Origin: a virus
Length of the DNA: 64,000 nucleotides
Strand: one strand, 5' to 3'
Virus record (IMG/VR): IMGVR_UViG_3300030339_000006
Shown in pieces: positions 1,290-58,645 of the stretch. Made by a program: the position numbers and the translations under genes. The notes under the pieces are model-generated. The model ran no database searches and had not been told where the DNA came from. It saw only the letters and a program-made list of their open reading frames with translations. Every line of letters starts with the position of its first letter. Position 1 is the first letter of the stretch.

Positions 1290-3648
1290 AGTTACCAATC
1301 ACTCGCCAAGCCGCTCCGGCATAACTTCCGTCCGTCCCTCCTGCAAAGAACACCATGAAGCTCGTCTTGTCGATCACTTTGGCTGACGCATAGCCCGGGT
1401 TACCGTTGTACGTCAGTGTCGCCTGAACCTGGAACATCGCGTTCGGGAACGGTGAAGGCAGCGTTACGATATGCTCACCGGCTGCCGTTGAGGTGATAGA
1501 CCCCCACTGCTCAATCAATCCAGAATCTCCGTCGGTACGAATCCCGGTAACCGCTACTGTGGCCGGAGAAATGGCCGGAGAGATATCCTTGATACGCGTC
1601 TTCGATTCCAGGAAGAATTGCTTCTTCGTTCTCGGGTTCGAGTAAATGCGACCGATTTCCAGGTCGACAAACACTGAAGCCCCAGCCGTCAGAGACCACG
1701 CGGTGCCGTTGTAAGACCAGACCGAACCGTCACGGGCATCGTAGATTTTGTTGTCACCAGAAGATGACGCCAGCGTCGTGAAGGTCGTTGCGTTCTGTGA
1801 CCAAGAGAAGTAACCGTAAGATGACTTGTCGTTGAACTTGGCCAGTGCCGCGGTAGTCAGGTCCAGAGTGATCGTCGCTCCAGCGATGTACGTGTTGGAG
1901 TTTAGGTCACTCGTGTCCAGAGTGATCGTGCTTCCGACGCGAGATGCTTTGATAAGGCAACCCTGTGGGAAACCACTCCATCCCTGTCCGGCGGTGTTGG
2001 TCACGTAACCGGCCGCTGCAGCGTTCGCACCGTAGTTCCCGTTACCCCATTTCACCAGGCTCGTCTTGTTCGTGATATCCGCAACAGACTGAGCAGTTCC
2101 CGCGGCGTTCTGCGTGAAGACTTTAACACCCCAGGTTTGATCACCCACACCACCCGGAGAGCGACAGGCTGCCAGGATGTACTTGTTGGTGGCATCCTGA
2201 GTAACTGCCAGGATCAGACCGACCGAGTCGTCATCCCCGTCCGTCGAAGACATTTGGGCTTCCAGAGACCAGTTGTCAAAACGACCTGGAGAGATAAATC
2301 CGGTCAACCCTGACGTGTTACGCGTACACTGAATCAATCCTGTTGTGGCGTTAAAGGTCCACGACTGGGTTTCATCCACCCCACTCGCGTTCGTCAGGCC
2401 TACACGGCCCCACTTGGCAAAGATATCGCCAGCCGTCAAGATAGTCGCTTTCTCTGCTGCCAGCGTCACGTCAGAGTTGACGATACGGGCGTCCTGAACG
2501 ACTTGTTCCGGAGACATCTTTTTAGATCCCGTTGCATCAACGAAGAGCACATCACCTTCACGGCCGGCCGGTACGTTGGCGTCGTCGAAAGCTCCCAGTT
2601 CTGTCAGCGTCGGCTTGTTCTCCGTAGAGTAGATCGGGATCCACGGCGTTACAGTGGTGCCGTCAGCACTCGGACGTTGATACATCAGCTTCGTCTGGTC
2701 AGAAGGGAAGGCTAGAGTAGCCGCTTTCCCAGTCGGCCCAGATGGAATTGTCATCAGCTGACCAACGTTTGAGCCAGTTGGACGATCTGCAACTGACGTT
2801 GCGGCACCCCCTGAGTCTGTACCCGCTTTATAGCCATAGAATCCCGCACCGATAGGGGAATCATTCACAGTTTGCACTTGGATTGTCCCGTCTGTCAGGT
2901 ATGGGATATTTGTCATACCCAGACCGGCGGCATTATTGATGCTAAGGAAACCATTTACCTTTGCGTCAATTTCCGTTTTGGTGTACGTGTTGAACGCACT
3001 GGCATCCAGCGTCAAGCCGGTACCGGTCATTGGGATATCGTTGATGGTGTACGTGCGAGGGACCGCTTCGGCCTTCGTGTACGCTCCAACATCCCCCGCG
3101 ACCAGGGTGATATCCTGGTAGAGTTGCTTTCCGTTTACCTTGCGAGTGGTCGGAACGTAACCCTGAAGCAGAGTGTCTACTTGACCACTGGTGTAGGCCC
3201 CGAGGTCAGCGGCGGTCAGCGTCAGGTTCTTGTTCAACTGCTGTCCATTGATCGTCACGGTGTTTGGCACGAAGCCCTGCACCTTGGTGTCGATCTCAGA
3301 GCTGCTGTACGTTCCGATATCTCCTGGTGTCAGGGTGATGTCTTTGTCGAGCAGCTTACCATTGACGCGAACAGGATTGTAGCCACCTGCTTCCACGGCA
3401 GCGATCTTCTGATCGATCGTGGTCTTATCGTAAGTATCCAGATCGTCCGCAGTGATCACCACGTCGTCGTCCAGCGTCTTGCCATTCACCATACGGCCAA
3501 CCGGTACGCGGGTACCGAGGTATCGTTCCGTGGTGTTGGCCACGTTAAGAGCATTGTCGGCAATCTGTTGGATCGCTGCGATGTCTTCTTCGGTGGTGAT
3601 GTCTTTACGCTCCACCCCACCGGGTGCTACTAACGTTAAATCGCTCAT
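1288..3648 (-). CDS. Tail fibre / receptor-binding protein
   Basis: Five ~36-aa VNGK.L..DI.L...D.G.Y repeats, central lectin-like region, C-terminal LIEQWG (gp53-like) domain; start moved to MSDLT after a GGAG RBS. Confidence 0.8.
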   Translation of the reverse strand: MSDLTLVAPGGVERKDITTEEDIAAIQQIADNALNVANTTERYLGTRVPVGRMVNGKTLDDDVVITADDLDTYDKTTIDQKIAAVEAGGYNPVRVNGKLLDKDITLTPGDIGTYSSSEIDTKVQGFVPNTVTINGQQLNKNLTLTAADLGAYTSGQVDTLLQGYVPTTRKVNGKQLYQDITLVAGDVGAYTKAEAVPRTYTINDIPMTGTGLTLDASAFNTYTKTEIDAKVNGFLSINNAAGLGMTNIPYLTDGTIQVQTVNDSPIGAGFYGYKAGTDSGGAATSVADRPTGSNVGQLMTIPSGPTGKAATLAFPSDQTKLMYQRPSADGTTVTPWIPIYSTENKPTLTELGAFDDANVPAGREGDVLFVDATGSKKMSPEQVVQDARIVNSDVTLAAEKATILTAGDIFAKWGRVGLTNASGVDETQSWTFNATTGLIQCTRNTSGLTGFISPGRFDNWSLEAQMSSTDGDDDSVGLILAVTQDATNKYILAACRSPGGVGDQTWGVKVFTQNAAGTAQSVADITNKTSLVKWGNGNYGANAAAAGYVTNTAGQGWSGFPQGCLIKASRVGSTITLDTSDLNSNTYIAGATITLDLTTAALAKFNDKSSYGYFSWSQNATTFTTLASSSGDNKIYDARDGSVWSYNGTAWSLTAGASVFVDLEIGRIYSNPRTKKQFFLESKTRIKDISPAISPATVAVTGIRTDGDSGLIEQWGSITSTAAGEHIVTLPSPFPNAMFQVQATLTYNGNPGYASAKVIDKTSFMVFFAGGTDGSYAGAAWRVIGN

Positions 3649-4159: not shown

Positions 4160-5436
4160 AAGCCTACGTTGTACCAAACGCCTCCCATTTTCTTTTGCAG
4201 ATACACATACCAAACGCCATCAACATCTTCGATCCACAGTTTACTAGTCTGGTAATCCGCAACGTTAGTAATAACCCCGCCTGCGGGAACGCTTGTGCGA
4301 CGCCCTTGTGAGTAGTAGGTGAACTGTAGTTTGTCGTTCTGAGTTTCTCCTGACCAACGGAGATCTTGAACGGCACCGAGGTTCGCAATCAGGGCGTTAA
4401 CCTCTGCTTGAGTATACGCACCAACGCCGTGAGCATCAATCGTTAAGTCATTGTCCAGGGTCATTCCGTTGATGCGGCGGGTGAGCGGGACTTTAGAGTT
4501 AGCCGTCTCATAGGCCACACGTACGGCATTGGCAGAACCGGCGTCAGTGGTAGATCCACTCGTGATCGAGTCGAGAACGCGGGTCAGACCTTGAACGCTG
4601 CTGGTCGCAATCGGGATATCCGACAGTTCAATGCGACGGCGCCATCCTGAGAAAGATCCTGCGGTAACAGCGGCGGTATAGAGATTACCGGCATCGGAGA
4701 TCAACGAGAGTGACTTGTAGTTCGTCACTTCATGGCTGGTACAGATGATTTCACCCCATCCGCCGACCACGTCGGTAGGATAGTTCGAATAGCCATTGCC
4801 CGGATAGTTATCCAAGTGATATACGCCGAACGGTTTATCGTTGAAGTACGTCGCCAGGTTAGTGCCCGTCGGGATCATAATCGATTTCGCGCCGACGCCA
4901 TAAAGGTCCAGCAACTGCTGGGTCTTCAGCGAGGTCATCGCACGGGTATTCTCAGTCTTGCTCTGGGCTTCCGCCGTTGCAGCAATCTCAATGAAACCCT
5001 TCTGAATCTCCGTCGCGTACGGGTGGTTCACAGAGGATTCATGCAGAGCAATAGCCGCGGCGATCGCTGCGTTCATCTCTGCCGTCTGTACGAAGGTCTT
5101 CCACCCACGGAAGACGTCCCCGAATACTTCCCCGATAAACAGGTTGTTACCCTTGGTGTTTGCGAAGATCGTGATGTTACCCGGCACGCCGCCGTAAATG
5201 ACGGTGTAGTACGTCTGCAAACCGTTAGGAGAACCGGTGCTCTGGCTGATCGCCGGGTCATCGTAGAAGAATCCACCGGTAGAACGGGCAAAGTAGTTCC
5301 CAATGTTAACGCCGGCCGGGATCGTTTTGGCCATGCCGCCGGTTCCGTACGAATCGAGTAAAGCTTGAGCTTGGTCCTGCGTCATCACGTACGGGTGGTT
5401 TACACCGGCACGGTCGACGACTGTTAATTCATTCAT
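4156..5436 (-). CDS. Tail fibre protein
   Basis: HPYATE.QKGF.EIA and AMTSLKT fibre repeats; RRINGMTL..DL repeat. Confidence 0.8.
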   Translation of the reverse strand: MNELTVVDRAGVNHPYVMTQDQAQALLDSYGTGGMAKTIPAGVNIGNYFARSTGGFFYDDPAISQSTGSPNGLQTYYTVIYGGVPGNITIFANTKGNNLFIGEVFGDVFRGWKTFVQTAEMNAAIAAAIALHESSVNHPYATEIQKGFIEIAATAEAQSKTENTRAMTSLKTQQLLDLYGVGAKSIMIPTGTNLATYFNDKPFGVYHLDNYPGNGYSNYPTDVVGGWGEIICTSHEVTNYKSLSLISDAGNLYTAAVTAGSFSGWRRRIELSDIPIATSSVQGLTRVLDSITSGSTTDAGSANAVRVAYETANSKVPLTRRINGMTLDNDLTIDAHGVGAYTQAEVNALIANLGAVQDLRWSGETQNDKLQFTYYSQGRRTSVPAGGVITNVADYQTSKLWIEDVDGVWYVYLQKKMGGVWYNVGL

Positions 5437-55060: not shown

Positions 55061-55090
55061 TTGACGAGCCCTTCGGGGCTCTGATAGTAT
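55061..55090 (+). promoter_or_regulatory. sigma70-type promoter overlapping a UUCG hairpin; may drive tRNA cluster 1
   Basis: TTGACG-18-TAGTAT with extended TG. Confidence 0.5.
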
Positions 55091-55652: not shown

Positions 55653-55692
55653 CTTCGATAGAGTCCTGGCTCTCTAAAACCGGGAGAATTTT

Positions 55693-55775: not shown

Positions 55776-55863
55776 GGACCGATAGTTTAACGAGCCAGAG
55801 CTCGAAGGGAAACGCCCAGGCGCCAAATCTGGGAGGTGAGGTGAAAGTCCTCAGAGTCCGCCA
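55776..55863 (+). ncRNA. Atypical tRNA-like RNA (expanded D region; loop CG-CCA-AA; T-loop TGAAAGT)
   Basis: GGAC../..GTCC-G-CCA ends; CCCAGG/TCTGGG stem; TGAGG/CCTCA stem. Confidence 0.55.
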
Positions 55864-55866
55864 AAC

Positions 55867-55947
55867 ATACCTATCGTCTAACTAGGACGCTGCTGTAGCC
55901 GCATGTGCTTCAGGGAAATGCAGGTTAGACTCCTGCTGGGTATACCA
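55867..55947 (+). ncRNA. Atypical tRNA-like RNA (extended anticodon arm; loop CG-CAT-GT)
   Basis: ATACCTA/TGGGTAT acceptor plus ACCA; GCAGG-TTAGACT-CCTGC T arm. Confidence 0.6.
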
Positions 55948-55949
55948 CT

Positions 55950-56038
55950 GGAAGATTGGCTGAGCCGGTCGAAAGCAGCAGATTGCTAATCTGTAGATCC
56001 CCTGGGGTCCGTGGGTTCGAATCCCACATCTTCCTCCA
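55950..56038 (+). tRNA. tRNA-Ser(GCT)
   Basis: Long variable arm; TT-GCT-AA; CCA. Confidence 0.9.
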
Positions 56039-56100
56039 CACTAAGTTACTTTCTGAAATACCCCTTCCTCGTAAAATTCATTCAAGTAATGGAGGTTTCC

Positions 56101-56403
56101 ATGCGTGAATGGCTTATAAAACTCTTAGGAGGAATTGTGGACGAAAAACCTGTAAGTGAACTGACCCCGATCGTTGACTCAGCCCCGGCTGACGTACCTG
56201 CACCGGTAACGGACTTCGATAAAGTGAAGTCAGTCCTGGTACTGATCGACGCCGGTATCGACGAAGCCTATGATGACGCTCTGGCAATCGCCCAGAAAGT
56301 CGGTGGCGACGTGCAAGGCAAGCTCAAGGTGTTCCTGAACGTAGCCGGTTATGCCGTCCCTGCGTTTGACGACATCGTGGCTTTCATCAAGAAGCACGGT
56401 TAA
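56101..56403 (+). CDS. Hypothetical protein
   Basis: GGAGG RBS; followed by a terminator. Confidence 0.6.
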   Translation: MREWLIKLLGGIVDEKPVSELTPIVDSAPADVPAPVTDFDKVKSVLVLIDAGIDEAYDDALAIAQKVGGDVQGKLKVFLNVAGYAVPAFDDIVAFIKKHG

Positions 56404-56404
56404 G

Positions 56405-56429
56405 AAAAGGCTCCTCACGGGGCCTTTTT
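56405..56429 (+). terminator. Rho-independent terminator
   Basis: AAAAGGCTCC-TCAC-GGGGCCTTTTT. Confidence 0.7.
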
Positions 56430-56463
56430 CATGTTATCCTCCTGATTCACACAGGAGATCACC

Positions 56464-56886
56464 ATGTTAATCATTTCTGCATTCCCGGGAACGGGTAAAT
56501 CCTACTTCCACGAGAAGTTCCCTCACGTCGCCGACTCAGATTCGAGCCAGTTCGACAAACGTTACTTCCCAAGCAACTATCTCACCCACATTCAGAATCG
56601 CTACGAACGCGGTCTGTGCACCTTCGTGTCCAGTCATGAAGCTGTCCGTAAGTCGATCATTTCGTCAGGCCTTCCTTTCATGCTGGTGTACCCGGCCAAG
56701 GAATGCAAAGCGGAATACCTGGAACGTTACCGTCTTCGTGGTTCCCCACAGGCCTTCATCGATCTGATCGACGCCAACTGGGACGCGTGGCTGGATGGCT
56801 GTGCCGCTGAACAGGCAGAACACGTTGTGCTTAAGCCTGGCCAGTACCTCAGCGACGTCATCCAGTGGGGCTTCAGTTTGAAATAA
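56464..56886 (+). CDS. Small P-loop NTPase/kinase
   Basis: IISAFPGTGKS, DSDSS.F, Y..RG. Confidence 0.7.
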   Translation: MLIISAFPGTGKSYFHEKFPHVADSDSSQFDKRYFPSNYLTHIQNRYERGLCTFVSSHEAVRKSIISSGLPFMLVYPAKECKAEYLERYRLRGSPQAFIDLIDANWDAWLDGCAAEQAEHVVLKPGQYLSDVIQWGFSLK

Positions 56887-56899
56887 AAGAGTGTCTCCT

Positions 56900-56907
56900 G
56901 GTATAAG
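56900..56907 (+). promoter_or_regulatory. GGTATAAG phage promoter-like motif
   Basis: Intergenic; followed by TAAGGTAC. Confidence 0.6.
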
Positions 56908-56932
56908 TAAGGTACACAACCAGGAGATCTTC

Positions 56933-57199
56933 ATGAAACTCACTCTGAAACAAAAAGGCCTTCGCCAATTCACCGTCCTGTTCCACCGTAAGAACGTCCA
57001 CTCTTTCTATCTGCCGGAAGACGAATCGCTGGCCTACGACCGTATCTACCAGATTCTCGATGAGACCGCCCCAACGCAGGACCCGGTAGACTTCTTCGAT
57101 GGCATGCATGACGCCGGCAACTCCCTGTTCCGGGCCTTCCGGGATAGACATCCGACGTCGTTCTACTGCGGGGCGGTGTGTCTCACTCTGGAGAAGTAG
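56933..57199 (+). CDS. Hypothetical protein
   Basis: AGGAG RBS. Confidence 0.55.
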   Translation: MKLTLKQKGLRQFTVLFHRKNVHSFYLPEDESLAYDRIYQILDETAPTQDPVDFFDGMHDAGNSLFRAFRDRHPTSFYCGAVCLTLEK

Positions 57200-57200
57200 T

Positions 57201-57707
57201 ATGCTCGAACACCTGCTTAGTCGTCACTATGACCCCGCTCGTTACCCGACGCAGTGGATCACCGACAACCAACTCGTCGTTCCGCTCTTTGATTTCATCG
57301 GGCGGCTTCGTGGCTGCCTGACCTACACCCGAGATGCCCCGAAGGAGCACGAGAATCCCCGCTTGAAGCGGTATCTTCCTCGAGCACCGGCAGGGTATCA
57401 ACCCCTCTGGGGTACTGAACTCCCGGTGAAAACCGGAGTCGTTTTCCTGACGGAATCCATCTTCAAGTCCGCTTCGCTGCACGCCCTGGGGTATGACTCG
57501 TGGGCGGTCTGTTCGTCGGCCCTGTCGGATCCTCTCTACCAGCAGCTCATGACCCTGCCCTACCAGTTCGTCTGTCTGGGCGACGATGATAAAGCCGGTC
57601 GGGAGCTTGCCCGCTCGTTAAAGTACGGCGCCACCTCAAGGGACTTGGATGAGTTGACCGTCCCGGAGCGTCTGGCGGTGATAAAACAATTTGACTTCCT
57701 TTTTTGA
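57201..57707 (+). CDS. Stand-alone TOPRIM (primase-like) domain protein
   Basis: PLF...G.L.G...Y, LWG, FLTESIF, GDDDKAG. Confidence 0.65.
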   Translation: MLEHLLSRHYDPARYPTQWITDNQLVVPLFDFIGRLRGCLTYTRDAPKEHENPRLKRYLPRAPAGYQPLWGTELPVKTGVVFLTESIFKSASLHALGYDSWAVCSSALSDPLYQQLMTLPYQFVCLGDDDKAGRELARSLKYGATSRDLDELTVPERLAVIKQFDFLF

Positions 57708-57728
57708 TTCCCTTAAACTTCAGTCACT

Positions 57729-57810
57729 GGGGGATTGGCAGAGCGGTCGAATGCGCCTGACTGTAAATCAGGTATCCCACACGGTGGTTCAAATCCATCA
57801 TCCCCCACCA
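57729..57810 (+). tRNA. tRNA-Tyr(GTA)
   Basis: CT-GTA-AA; ACCA end. Confidence 0.9.
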
Positions 57811-57811
57811 T

Positions 57812-57886
57812 TGGAGTGTAGCCAAGCGGAAAGGCACTGGTCTCTGAAGCCGGTATGCGGTGGTTCGATCCCACCCACTCCAGCCA
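57812..57886 (+). tRNA. tRNA-Gln(CTG)
   Basis: U1-A72; CT-CTG-AA; GCCA. Confidence 0.9.
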
Positions 57887-57888
57887 TC

Positions 57889-57974
57889 GCAGGAATGATG
57901 GAAAGTAGACATAGGCATCGTCGGATGTCTTGCCGGTTGGCATTGGGAGGTTAGAGTCCTCTCTTCCTGCACCA
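57889..57974 (+). ncRNA. Leu-type tRNA body with an aberrant anticodon loop (CGTCGG)
   Basis: GCAGGAA/TTCCTGC plus ACCA; long variable arm TGCC-GGTT-GGCA; 6-bp T stem. Confidence 0.6.
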
Positions 57975-57978
57975 CTTT

Positions 57979-58061
57979 TGAAGAAGATAGTCGGACTGGT
58001 TGCACCAGGCGGAAAATTAGCAGACATTGGGTTCGAGTCCCTACTTGCTATCTTCTTCACC
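57979..58061 (+). ncRNA. Structured RNA with a T-arm and a 12-bp closing stem
   Basis: TGAAGAAGATAG/CTATCTTCTTCA; GGG-TTCGAGT-CCC; CTGGT-TGC-ACCAG. Confidence 0.5.
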
Positions 58062-58068
58062 TAACGAT

Positions 58069-58143
58069 TGGGGTTTAGTTTAGTTGGTAAAACACCGGGC
58101 TTTGATCCCGGTATCGGGGGTTCGATCCCCTCAACCCCTGCCA
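58069..58143 (+). tRNA. tRNA-Gln(TTG)
   Basis: CT-TTG-AT; GCCA. Confidence 0.9.
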
Positions 58144-58571: not shown

Positions 58572-58645
58572 AAGACAAGTAGCTCAACTGGTTAGAGCAT
58601 AATCATACCCGATTAGTGTTGGGGGTTCGAGTCCCCCCTGTCTTA
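58572..58645 (+). ncRNA. tRNA-like RNA or tRNA pseudogene (6-nt loop ATACCC, no CCA)
   Basis: Canonical D arm TAGCTCAACTGGTTAGAGC and T arm GGGGG-TTCGAGT-CCCCC. Confidence 0.6.

Follow-up and report, generated by a model that had tools for sequence, protein, structure and literature searches.

The tRNA clusters of a 176 kb phage of metagenome-only origin contain three tRNA-shaped genes, here called E1, E2 and E3, that are interspersed with ordinary tRNA genes, and they raise the question of whether such RNAs decode, decay or serve some other purpose. The next sections discuss their setting, their structure and relatives, and the roles that may be proposed for them; the window referred to throughout is the whole stretch of DNA that was analyzed, 64,000 nucleotides long.

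Gene setting

The features of the two tRNA sub-clusters are the following, with coordinates in the window, strand and the basis of each assignment.

55061..55090 (+): promoter-like site, TTGACG, 18-nt spacer, TAGTAT, with TG, 5' of a small ORF and the first tRNA sub-cluster; consensus scan, pattern match only
55653..55684 (+): spacer of 32 nt separating tRNA-Ala from tRNA-Asp, near-identical across Arash-like relatives; relatives compared, one copy in this genome
55693..55769 (+): tRNA-Asp(GUC), 6 nt 5' of E1; ARAGORN, Rfam 55.2 bits
55776..55863 (+): E1, tRNA-Trp-like cloverleaf; fold, model R1 75.4 bits, covariation
55867..55947 (+): E2, tRNA-Met(CAU)-like; fold, relaxed ARAGORN, signature scan
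55950..56038 (+): tRNA-Ser(GCU), starting 2 nt past E2; ARAGORN, Rfam
57691..57719 (+): promoter-like site, TTGACT, 17-nt spacer, TAAACT, 5' of tRNA-Tyr and the second sub-cluster; consensus scan, pattern match only
57729..57886 (+): tRNA-Tyr(GUA) and tRNA-Gln(CUG), E3 beginning 2 nt past the latter; ARAGORN, Rfam
57889..57974 (+): E3, class-II tRNA-Leu-like; fold z = -3.09, D-arm motif, Ag3 analogue
57978..58062 (+): E4, a fourth odd RNA; fold z = -3.02
58069..58143 (+): tRNA-Gln(UUG), last of the second sub-cluster; ARAGORN, Rfam

The three elements share the strand of the flanking true tRNAs, from which they are 2-6 nt away, the spacers being 6, 3, 2 and 2 nt, and all three end in NCCA. An earlier note on this DNA, made from the sequence alone, had described their positions and folds, with a complete acceptor stem in two, a partial one in the first and an encoded CCA in all, and this description was borne out by sequence and fold checks (7/7 acceptor pairs in E2 and E3, 4/7 in E1). 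The genome as a whole encodes 24 tRNAs, including a tRNA-Trp, two tRNA-Met(CAU) and a tRNA-Leu, and contains no tmRNA detectable by ARAGORN -m. The spacer at 55653-55684 was considered as a repeated phage promoter and discarded, because it occurs only once in the genome. The phage Arash has its own tRNA-Asp, with a truncated T arm.

Detection by standard models

Eleven tRNAs were found in the window by ARAGORN at default settings and by Rfam at the gathering score, the latter a score check of the Infernal type that the earlier note had proposed, and E1, E2 and E3 are not among them. The general tRNA model RF00005 (threshold 29 bits) matches none of them at the gathering score or at E ≤ 10. In searches with the single elements at E ≤ 10, no model of the tRNA clan (CL00001) matches E1 or E2, and the best tRNA-clan match of E3 is tRNA-Sec at 22.6 bits, for which the gathering score is 47. 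Once its thresholds are relaxed, ARAGORN reports E2 as tRNA-Met(cat) at 90% and E3 as a tRNA of undetermined type at 80%, while E1 is never reported. The tmRNA models and YrlA in Rfam have no match over E1-E3, and E1 falls within no Rfam family, whether the window copy or those of Ackermannviridae are considered.

A genome-wide scan for a structural signature (7/7 acceptor pairs, 5-bp T stem and NCCA) returned 23 matches, namely 18 true tRNAs, E2, E3 and three placed elsewhere. Simulated genomes gave 2.7 matches each, so that the three stray matches are accounted for by the chance expectation and E2 and E3 go beyond it. Alignment of E1-E3 with the 24 tRNAs of the phage, as a search for paralogy, gave scores no higher, or hardly higher, than those of shuffled sequences.

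The E1 family

The acceptor stem of E1 has four of seven Watson-Crick pairs (GGAC/GUCC) and a conserved 3-nt mismatch block, CGA facing AGA. U8 is kept, the D stem is GUUU/AAAC, and a hairpin (55791-55804) is inserted where the D loop would be. The anticodon-like stem is 6 bp long and carries the loop CGCCAAA (55821..55827, + strand), the T stem UGAGG/CCUCA bears the T loop UGAAAGU, and the molecule terminates in G73-CCA. The folding energy of E1 is like that of shuffled sequence (z = -0.6).

Homologues of E1 occur in 7/7 Arash-like phages when this one is counted (the others being Arash and five IMG/VR relatives), and also in 187 Ackermannviridae records, where the gene is nearly always unannotated and is present at full length, with 85-100% identity within the family. 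The hosts of the element include cultivable phages of Salmonella, E. coli, Klebsiella and Dickeya, such as Arash, Det7 and Vi01. The Arash-like group is unrelated to Ackermannviridae, and the E1 family there includes a mosaic copy.

A single four-way junction fold is common to all 14 of the 14 E1-family sequences tested. The family was defined by a 4-6 bp acceptor stem, a D stem GUUU/AAC carrying the inserted hairpin, a 6-bp stem whose loop contains CCAA, a T stem of 4-5 bp with a T loop of 6-10 nt, and G73-CCA, and all of these features are present in the window's E1. The covariance model built here for the family, R1, scores 75.4 bits on this E1, 64.2-64.5 bits on the Arash-like copies and 104-121 bits on those of Ackermannviridae, compared with ≤24 bits on ordinary tRNAs.

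The earlier note had named covariation in relatives as a check, and for E1 the check came out in its favor. When the alignment is the one fitted by the covariance model, pairing holds in 97.1% of cells, and 14/26 pairs vary on both sides, a figure reached by 0/500 shuffles and compared with 2-3 in slid controls. A structure-blind MAFFT alignment gave a similar picture, as 94.8% of cells pair and 10/26 pairs vary on both sides (0/500 shuffles reach this value; slid controls 1-5). Compensatory changes are found in every helix that varies, the anticodon-like stem included. As judged from these alignments, E1 is a real RNA under selection and not a decaying one, because it has been kept in both groups of phages and its varying helices show compensatory changes throughout.

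The loops of the family read GUCCAA, CGCCAAA, GGCCAA or CGGCCAAA, that is, 6, 7 or 8 nt, and decoding by E1 appears unlikely because loops of these different sizes are set on a 6-bp stem. Every E1-family sequence has CCAA in the loop and the discriminator G73. This conservation bears on the claim that the loops of the three elements all begin with CG instead of YU: the letters are there in the window, but they depend on where each loop is taken to start, and in E3 the C and the G can pair with each other. As a unifying signature the CG start is ruled out, since it is absent from the E1 homologues GUCCAA, GGCCAA and CGGCCAAA, where CCAA is conserved instead.

Tryptophan marks in E1

The loop CGCCAAA of E1 equals that of tRNA-Trp, CUCCAAA, with U33 changed to G; both the phage's own tRNA-Trp and that of E. 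coli have this loop together with G73. The A that follows CCA in the loop of E1 corresponds to A37 of tRNA-Trp, and the gene order, tRNA-Asp then E1, mirrors that of aspT and trpT in E. coli. In the first 15 nt, counted from the 5' end, one indel and one base separate the Ackermannviridae E1 from E. coli tRNA-Trp.

Taken over the whole molecule, similarity does not point to tryptophan in particular, as R1 gives E. coli tRNA-Trp 16.7 bits, less than the 24.1 bits of the phage tRNA-Asp. In alignments of the skeleton, E. coli tRNA-Trp ranks 2nd, 2nd, 5th and 4th of 54 tRNAs, and blastn of the Vi01 copy of E1 against E. coli genomes found nothing. According to published identity rules, the Trp synthetase reads the anticodon and G73, CAU alone suffices for Met identity, and LeuRS charges without need of the anticodon arm (PMC9976931). 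The mismatch block, the 6-bp stem and the variable loop size of E1 may block binding of TrpRS or EF-Tu.

E2, E3 and the neighboring E4

E2 has a fully paired acceptor stem (7/7), a 5-bp D stem with the 5-nt D loop AACUA, which lacks GG, and a 7-bp anticodon stem including one U.U mismatch. Its loop is CGCAUGU (55900..55906, + strand), with G33 and with the anticodon at position 36 according to ARAGORN; the T loop reads UUAGACU, and the element ends in A73-CCA. While 24/25 pairs are intact, the folding energy is like that of shuffled sequence (z = -0.75). E2 could be regarded as a borderline tRNA-Met(CAU) with G33, for which the retained 7-nt CAU loop leaves decoding possible. The slot of E2 is occupied in Arash-like relatives by other elements or by a terminator; descent of E2 from that terminator, or from the "X element" filling the slot in relatives, was considered and dropped because the similarity is too weak.

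E3 also has a 7/7 acceptor stem, together with a Leu-type D arm with a single G in the D loop, a 4-bp hairpin as variable arm (57931-57942), the T loop UUAGAGU and the 3' end A73-CCA. Its anticodon arm (57913-57930) is sealed by a 7-bp stem closed with a GUCG loop, which becomes the 6-nt CGUCGG when the C-G pair is left open, and decoding by E3 appears unlikely because the loop is sealed. The fold is better than that of all 200 shuffles (z = -3.09; 0/200 as good), with 27/27 predicted pairs intact. Descent from tRNA-Leu was judged from a Leu-type D arm (3-bp stem, GGAA..GUAGAC) accompanied by a long variable arm and A73, and E3 has the class-II body, the D arm, the variable arm and A73, with the anticodon absent; 103/120 IMG/VR matches to its D-arm motif and T loop are genuine tRNA-Leu. 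An analogue with the same body, a sealed hairpin shorter still and different helix sequences is present in Agtrevirus Ag3. A sealed Leu-like element of this kind goes under the name tRNA-Ser(UGA) in the annotations of Ag3 and MK-13, while that of EspM4VN lists it as tRNA-Undet.

The neighboring E4 consists of a 12-13-bp closing stem enclosing a T-arm-like GGG-UUCGAGU-CCC, and its 3' end is ACCU. The slot of E3 and E4 holds a tRNA-Phe in Arash-like relatives.

A proposed role as non-decoding mimics

The three elements share more than their setting. U33 is absent from all of them (G33 in E1 and E2, a sealed loop in E3), the anticodon stem is lengthened in E1 and E2, and position 56 of the T loop is A throughout, so that the elbow pair G19-C56 is lost; this agrees with the earlier statement that U33 and the T-loop TTC are missing from all three. 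The accompanying statement that the D-loop GG is missing holds for E2 (AACUA) and E3 (single G) but only loosely for E1, whose D region contains a GGG run. The remodeling is limited to functional loops, and the helices are intact (24/25 pairs in E2, 27/27 in E3).

The explanation that we prefer, and to which we give about an even chance, is that E1-E3 are tRNA-derived RNAs (Trp-, Met- and Leu-like), processed like tRNAs, which would act as non-decoding mimics, the identity marks for synthetases being retained. They would be genes derived from tRNAs within the phage's two tRNA transcription units. Because they keep an acceptor stem stacked on the T arm and an encoded NCCA, they would be cut from the precursor like their neighbors, with RNase P cutting at the 5' side and the 3' side being trimmed as far as CCA, and the products would build up as stable small RNAs. 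The ability to read codons would be gone from E1 and E3, and probably from E2, because the parts needed by the ribosome (U33, the anticodon arm and G19-C56) have been rebuilt. The idea that the elements are non-decoding, already put forward in the earlier note, fares well for E1, with its loop sizes and 6-bp stem, and for E3, with its sealed loop, but less well for E2, whose 7-nt CAU loop could decode.

By the published rules, the identity marks kept would be the loop CCA and G73 in E1 (Trp), CAU and A73 in E2 (Met), and the Leu-type body and A73 in E3. The RNAs may thus be mimics occupying proteins that recognize one particular tRNA. The first candidate target would be the synthetase itself, the mimics being charged but not decoding; alternatively, they may serve as decoys for a host tRNA-targeting enzyme. 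The earlier note had named, as roles that they may have, those of nuclease decoy, inhibitor of tRNA-sensing defenses and aminoacyl donor off the ribosome. A more specific proposal, which we advance tentatively and rate well short of even, is that the E1 family is a Trp-specific mimic, recognized and probably charged by TrpRS via CCA(A) and G73 and barred from the ribosome, which baits or buffers a host factor that senses or attacks (Trp-)tRNA, with E2 (Met) and E3 (Leu) as lineage-specific inventions on the same principle. We know of no nuclease specific for tRNA-Trp in enterobacteria. The phage genome contains no class-Ib synthetase of the TrpRS/TyrRS type (PF00579), no FemAB and no L/F-transferase that could use a charged mimic, and neither a PF09414 RNA ligase nor a homologue of the Arash gp120 RNA ligase; no link to tRNA repair or aminoacyl transfer is therefore claimed.

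Alternative explanations

E2 and E3, though not E1, might instead be functionless relics of tRNA genes that one lineage acquired recently and that have not yet decayed, an explanation that we consider unlikely. The search for relatives speaks for it. Neither E2 nor E3 has a homologue in the syntenic slots of six complete or near-complete Arash-like relatives, where these slots are otherwise filled, and whole-genome BLAST of E2, E3 and E4 against five complete relatives returned only chance matches of 13-29 nt. Among 50,697 phage records, blastn with the same three elements gave only chance-level matches, the one match for E3 being a 28-nt T-arm match to a Caulobacter phage tRNA-Leu, and two metagenome pattern scans gave 0 matches, with patterns so strict that distant homologues would escape. 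The folding energy of E2, no better than shuffled, and the quick turnover of the tRNA cluster, of which the truncated tRNA-Asp of Arash is an example, point the same way. Since E2 and E3 have no homologues in these searches, selection is demonstrated for E1 only, and the other two may be young. On the other hand, intact helices with departures confined to functional loops are unlike random decay, Ag3 has an element of the same design as E3 (Leu-type body, sealed arm) whose helices differ in sequence, E2 and E3 still end in CCA and still lie 2-3 nt from their neighbors, and the adjacent E1, remodeled likewise, is demonstrably selected. The earlier argument that the elements are tRNA-derived and not randomly decaying is thus upheld for E1 by conservation and compensatory changes, and reaches less far for E2 and E3, which are private to this phage.

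It is distinctly unlikely that E1-E3 act in cis as "punctuation", that is, as modules that recruit RNase P and other enzymes to cut or stabilize the tRNA transcript, the released RNA having no task of its own. All modules of the operon end in a stem plus NCCA, as do plain hairpins in the operons of relatives (e.g., the 46-nt minihelix L005:4568-4613, z = -3.94), and in those operons the inter-tRNA content changes fast while the stem-plus-CCA design stays. However, the adjacent tRNAs are RNase P substrates themselves and require no helper, and such a function leaves unexplained the covariation of the anticodon-like stem of E1 as well as its CCAA, G73, U8/D stem and acceptor mismatch block, which are found in two phage families.

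Little probability attaches, in our judgment, to the suggestion that one or more of the elements, chiefly E2, are working tRNAs in which an unusual G33 loop confers resistance to anticodon nucleases while decoding is kept. E2 has the 7-nt CAU loop, the full acceptor stem and the T arm, and reaches 90% of the ARAGORN threshold for tRNA-Met. Loops without U33 do exist in otherwise normal phage tRNAs, as ARAGORN called 636 tRNAs in the viral loci retrieved, of which 603 have U at position 33, 15 have C, 4 have G and 1 has A, and phage tRNAs have been proposed to evade VapC, PrrC and colicins by anticodon-loop changes (PMC10264068). Against this stand the simultaneous loss of U33, the G18G19 pair and C56, the failure of E1 and E2 to match an Rfam tRNA model even at E ≤ 10, the 7-bp anticodon stem of E2 with its U.U mismatch, the 6-8 nt loops of the E1 homologues and the closed loop of E3; moreover, the genome already has a tRNA-Trp, two tRNA-Met(CAU) and a tRNA-Leu.

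A far fainter chance is left for the notion that the (G/U)CCAA of E1 is not an anticodon but an internal copy of the NCCA end, baiting CCA-readers (e.g., RNase P, toxins of the acceptor end and the CCA-adding enzyme), or a kissing-loop partner pairing with UUGG: the motif is fixed though the loop size is free, and the loops of the window and of Ackermannviridae read GCCA, as does the 3' end of E1, but the Arash-like forms have UCCA in the loop against GCCA at the 3' end, and a Trp anticodon origin accounts more simply for G73, the order Asp-then-E1 and the A after CCA.

Comparison with known systems

The closest known systems are RNAC (species 1) and RNAD (species 2) of T4, small RNAs of unknown role that are located within the phage tRNA region and co-transcribed with it (PMC3014915), and whose expression was seen by Northern blot (PMC9697503). 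E1-E3 are likened to them by gene setting, being encoded inside a phage tRNA cluster on the same strand, and are themselves clear cloverleaf derivatives of particular tRNAs with synthetase marks. With canonical phage tRNAs, for which anticodon-loop change is a proposed escape route from host tRNases (van den Berg et al. 2023, PMC10264068), they share operon, strand, spacing and encoded CCA. Unlike these, E1-E3 fail the tRNA models, lack U33 and G19-C56 and have lengthened or sealed anticodon arms, losses with which E1 and E3 could not be ordinary decoders.

A tRNA-derived RNA recruited outside translation is known in the tRNA-Other of Bacillus cereus (Rogers et al. 2012, PMC3399842). That gene is chromosomal, flanks a genomic island and is part of a larger regulatory transcript, whereas E1-E3 are CCA-ended units in a phage tRNA operon. 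Viral tRNA mimics are also found in plant RNA viruses, whose TLS-Val and TLS-Tyr are recognized by synthetases without decoding (PMC7749636, PMC10870377). Those structures act in cis at the 3' end of an RNA genome, belong to viruses of eukaryotes and in many cases contain pseudoknots, whereas E1-E3 are stand-alone genes of a DNA phage for which charging is predicted from identity marks.

Significance

That phage tRNA clusters encode extra small RNAs has been known since T4, and the role of these RNAs is still obscure after fifty years. E1 would be an undescribed and widespread phage RNA family, carried by seven Arash-like phages and about 190 Ackermannviridae genomes. The finding also bears on annotation, as the E1 gene is unannotated in about 190 phage genomes and a related sealed Leu-like element is annotated as a tRNA. 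Being conserved with compensatory changes in cultivable phages, E1 offers a tractable entry to the role of the extra small RNAs, and because it carries recognizable tryptophan marks, a specific and cheap hypothesis is available, namely that it may be bound or charged by TrpRS.

Genome and Operon Layout

The virus record that contains the window is a complete genome of 176,021 bp in IMG/VR, and the 'orphan' Salmonella phage Arash is a relative of this virus, with a gene and tRNA order common to both. ARAGORN and Rfam recognize 11 tRNAs in the window; the genome total is 24. All of them lie on a single strand, and nearly every one has its CCA encoded. The three tRNA-like elements E1, E2, and E3 are tRNA-derived genes within these tRNA operons, and each of the two sub-clusters in which they lie has a candidate sigma-70-like site (pattern match only) on its 5' side.

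First sub-cluster: tRNA-Asp; 6 nt; E1, 55776-55863; 3 nt; E2, 55867-55947; 2 nt; tRNA-Ser(GCU)
Second sub-cluster: tRNA-Tyr; tRNA-Gln(CUG); 2 nt; E3, 57889-57974; E4 (a fourth odd RNA), 57978-58062; tRNA-Gln(UUG)

A 32-nt spacer, CTTCGATAGAGTCCTGGCTCTCTAAAACCGGG (55653-55684), separates tRNA-Ala from tRNA-Asp and is present in one copy per genome. It is unchanged or differs by 1 base across seven Arash-like phages, its surroundings all being variable, and three relatives have an insertion, an ORF of about 150 codons, directly 3' of it.

Folds and Detection of E1-E3

The folds proposed in the earlier note for E1, E2, and E3 were all reproduced by fold prediction. E1 has U8, an acceptor with just 4 Watson-Crick pairs, a D stem (GUUU/AAAC) bearing an inserted hairpin where the D loop would be, a 6-bp anticodon-like stem with the loop CGCCAAA, the T loop UGAAAGU, and a 3' end G73-CCA. 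In E2 the acceptor is complete and the 5-bp D stem carries a loop of 5 nt. Its anticodon stem spans 7 bp with one U.U mismatch and bears the loop CGCAUGU; the T loop is UUAGACU, and the 3' end is A73-CCA. E3 also has a complete acceptor and A73-CCA, together with a Leu-type D arm, a variable-arm hairpin, and the T loop UUAGAGU, and the position of its anticodon arm is taken by a 7-bp stem capped by GUCG.

The Rfam tRNA model and ARAGORN with default settings both miss all three. When searched singly at E<=10, E1 and E2 matched no tRNA-clan model, and the best score of E3 was 22.6 bits against tRNA-Sec (threshold 47). With relaxed thresholds, ARAGORN reported E2 as tRNA-Met(CAU) and E3 as an undetermined tRNA, E1 still being uncalled. 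The whole genome was scanned for acceptors paired 7/7 together with a 5-bp T stem and NCCA. Of the hits, 18 were true tRNAs, two were E2 and E3, and three were strays, where simulated genomes gave an expectation of 2.7 hits each; because E2 and E3 match this pattern and adjoin tRNAs at 2-3 nt, they are not chance structures.

Loops that begin with CG instead of YU had been proposed as the mark common to all three. E1 and E2 do read C32-G33, but the E1 homologues differ and the C and G of E3 most likely pair, so CG was rejected as a unifying signature. Across 636 ARAGORN calls in the fetched viral loci, position 33 is U in 603, C in 15 (often within CCNNNAA loops), and G in 4; G33 is rare in phage tRNAs. 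The real common feature of E1, E2, and E3 is A56, with which the G19-C56 elbow pair is lost.

Conservation and Covariation of E1

A partial blastn match of E1 pointed to the Ackermannviridae, and with the copy of Shigella phage Ag3 as query, full-length E1 was found in 187 records, in which it is hardly ever annotated. E1 is also present in six Arash-like relatives (Arash and five IMG/VR phages), preceded every time by tRNA-Asp. In Arash itself a deletion has removed most of the T arm of this tRNA-Asp (L004:9851-9916), which ARAGORN does not call, and the adjacent E1 is intact.

One common four-way junction is predicted for 14/14 diverse E1 copies. A structure-blind MAFFT alignment had 94.8% of its cells paired and changes on both sides in 10 of the 26 pairs, a covariation equalled by 0/500 shuffles, with slid controls at 1-5. 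The alignment fitted to R1, a covariance model of the E1 family built in this analysis, gave 97.1% of cells paired and both-side changes in 14/26 pairs, again equalled in none of 500 shuffles (slid controls, 2-3). The covariants lie in the acceptor (GGAC/GUCC, GGGG/CCCC, GGGUUG/CGGCCC), in the anticodon-like stem (CCCAGG/UCUGGG vs GCUGGA/UCCAGC), and in the T stem (UGAGG/CCUCA, GCAAG/CUUGC, GUGGC/GCCAC, GUGGU/ACCAC), and the inserted D hairpin covaries too. E1 is under purifying selection on its cloverleaf fold, on CCAA, and on G73; no Rfam family covers it. Because the window's copy is a mosaic, with an Arash-type acceptor and a T arm and loop close to the Ackermannviridae form, its sequence suggests exchange between co-infecting phages.

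CCAA and G73 are found in all E1 copies, on loops of differing size that always sit on a 6-bp stem: 6 nt in the Arash-like phages other than the window's (GUCCAA) and in most Ackermannviridae (GGCCAA), 7 nt in the window (CGCCAAA), and 8 nt in Ag3, Det7, and PhaxI (CGGCCAAA). A loop of 6, 7, or 8 nt on a 6-bp stem is out of keeping with codon reading. Genuine tRNA-Trp of both the window's phage and E. coli has the loop CUCCAAA and G73, and the window's E1 loop is that of tRNA-Trp with U33 changed to G. For E. coli, Trp identity is assigned to the anticodon, to G73, and to the upper end of the acceptor stem (review, PMC9976931). Furthermore, the first 15 nt of Ackermannviridae E1 are one indel and one base apart from E. 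coli tRNA-Trp, and the E. coli order tRNA-Asp, 8 nt, tRNA-Trp matches the phage order of tRNA-Asp and E1. From these sequence marks E1 likely descends from tRNA-Trp, although by overall similarity tRNA-Trp does not stand out. Two conserved traits are foreign to tRNAs, namely a block of 3 mismatched nt in the acceptor stem (CGA facing AGA) and a T loop that lacks psi55-C56.

Lineage Restriction of E2 and E3

Conservation in relatives, whose absence the earlier note had named as a refutation, was not found for E2 and E3 in the six relatives; neither has a counterpart in whole-genome BLAST of five complete relatives, in the phage collection, or in two strict metagenome scans. In the six relatives, the slot 3' of E1 is taken by a terminator, by additional RNAs that end in CCA, or by another element that is itself conserved, and that 3' of tRNA-Tyr holds tRNA-Phe. 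E2 and E3 are private to the window's phage.

This restriction raises the question of whether E2 and E3 (only these two) are relics, which we regard as unlikely. The helices are intact in 24/25 pairs of E2 and 27/27 of E3, and all departures from a normal tRNA are confined to functional loops; the same kinds of remodelling occur in the adjacent E1, which is under proven selection. This pattern of change speaks against simple decay.

The D arm of E3 matches a motif that, when paired with a T loop, picked out genuine tRNA-Leu in 103 of 120 IMG/VR hits. An element of the Agtrevirus Ag3 has the D arm, variable arm, and A73-CCA of E3, with an even shorter sealed hairpin, UCCC-UGAG-GGGA. Since the shared D arm is of a generic tRNA-Leu type, it fits homology or convergence alike, and either way the design recurs. 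This Ag3 element (L002:2353-2433; identical in MK-13 and EspM4VN), a tRNA-Leu-type body with A73 and a sealed 12-nt hairpin replacing the anticodon arm, is annotated as tRNA-Ser(tga) in Ag3 and MK-13 and as 'tRNA-Undet' in EspM4VN; judged by its sequence, the tRNA-Ser(UGA) annotation is probably wrong.

Other Odd RNAs in Phage tRNA Operons

E4, directly 3' of E3, has a 12-13-bp closing stem around a T-arm-like GGG-UUCGAGU-CCC, ends in ACCU and not ACCA (fold z = -3.02), and is absent from the five complete relatives. Another gene, reported by ARAGORN as 'tRNA-???', belongs to a family of its own.

Members of the 'tRNA-???' family
Window 58572-58645 (38 bits in Rfam)
L004:12348-12421 (Arash)
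L005:6912-6987
L022:5200-5278
L151:3857-3933, minus strand

Its D and T arms are canonical and conserved and an encoded CCA is absent; the 'anticodon' loop, borne by a stem that covaries, is hypervariable (6 to ~12 nt), and two small membrane-protein ORFs always precede the gene.

Beyond the window, on its scale, structured RNAs lie between tRNAs at 64682-64845 (~165 nt, canonical T arm GGGG-UUCGAAU-CCCC, GCCA end) and 68316-68410 (~95 nt, ACCA end). Relatives carry private sets of odd RNAs in equivalent slots (L005:4489-4562, 4568-4613, 4777-4865; L022:3695-3777), namely a tRNA-like element whose loop has 6 nt, a 46-nt minihelix ending in CCA (z = -3.94), a cloverleaf of class II that has the loop UGCGUAU (again G33) and ends in ACC, and a CCA-ended 83-nt hairpin RNA. 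The long 'spacers' of Ackermannviridae operons (L002:2939-3195, 3280-3590; L003:2681-2937) are further stem-plus-CCA modules, all unannotated, for example one of ~75 nt with a 14-bp closing stem and an ACCA end.

IMG/VR viral contigs with odd tRNA bodies or loops
L066, L072, L074, L077, L089, L116, L119, L131
L046, L098, L102, L125, L130, L141

Several of these combine a class-II body of tRNA-Leu type with non-Leu anticodon loops, e.g., GUU in a gene that ends in GCCA; in others the loop has 4-6 nt and CCA is lacking.

Possible Functions

The best reading of E1-E3 is as tRNA mimics that engage tRNA-specific proteins, whether charged or as decoys. The stacked acceptor and T arm and the NCCA end suggest that they would be processed in the manner of tRNAs. 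Pure processing punctuation is an improbable explanation, which would not account for the CCAA and G73 kept in E1. That they are odd yet working nuclease-resistant tRNAs (compare PMC10264068) is improbable, and would apply chiefly to E2, which retains CAU and A73 and has G33, a long anticodon stem, A56, and no D-loop GG; CAU is reported to be sufficient for MetRS (review, PMC9976931). That the E1 loop imitates a CCA end is very unlikely.

As tRNA mimics, E1 and E3, and probably E2, would be non-decoding, each presumably still recognisable by the synthetase whose identity marks remain, and they would occupy tRNA-specific proteins. They may be charged by a synthetase with no decoding to follow, or they may be decoys for host enzymes that target tRNAs. 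Searches of the genome for a user gene of a charged mimic (class-Ib synthetase, FemAB, L/F-transferase) found none, nor was an RNA-repair ligase found. A precedent for a pseudo-tRNA recruited to a non-translational role is tRNA-Other of B. cereus (PMC3399842). What is new here is the occurrence of the E1 family in two unrelated phage groups, the Trp marks on E1, the Leu-type counterpart of E3 in Ag3, and the lineage-specific status of E2 and E3.
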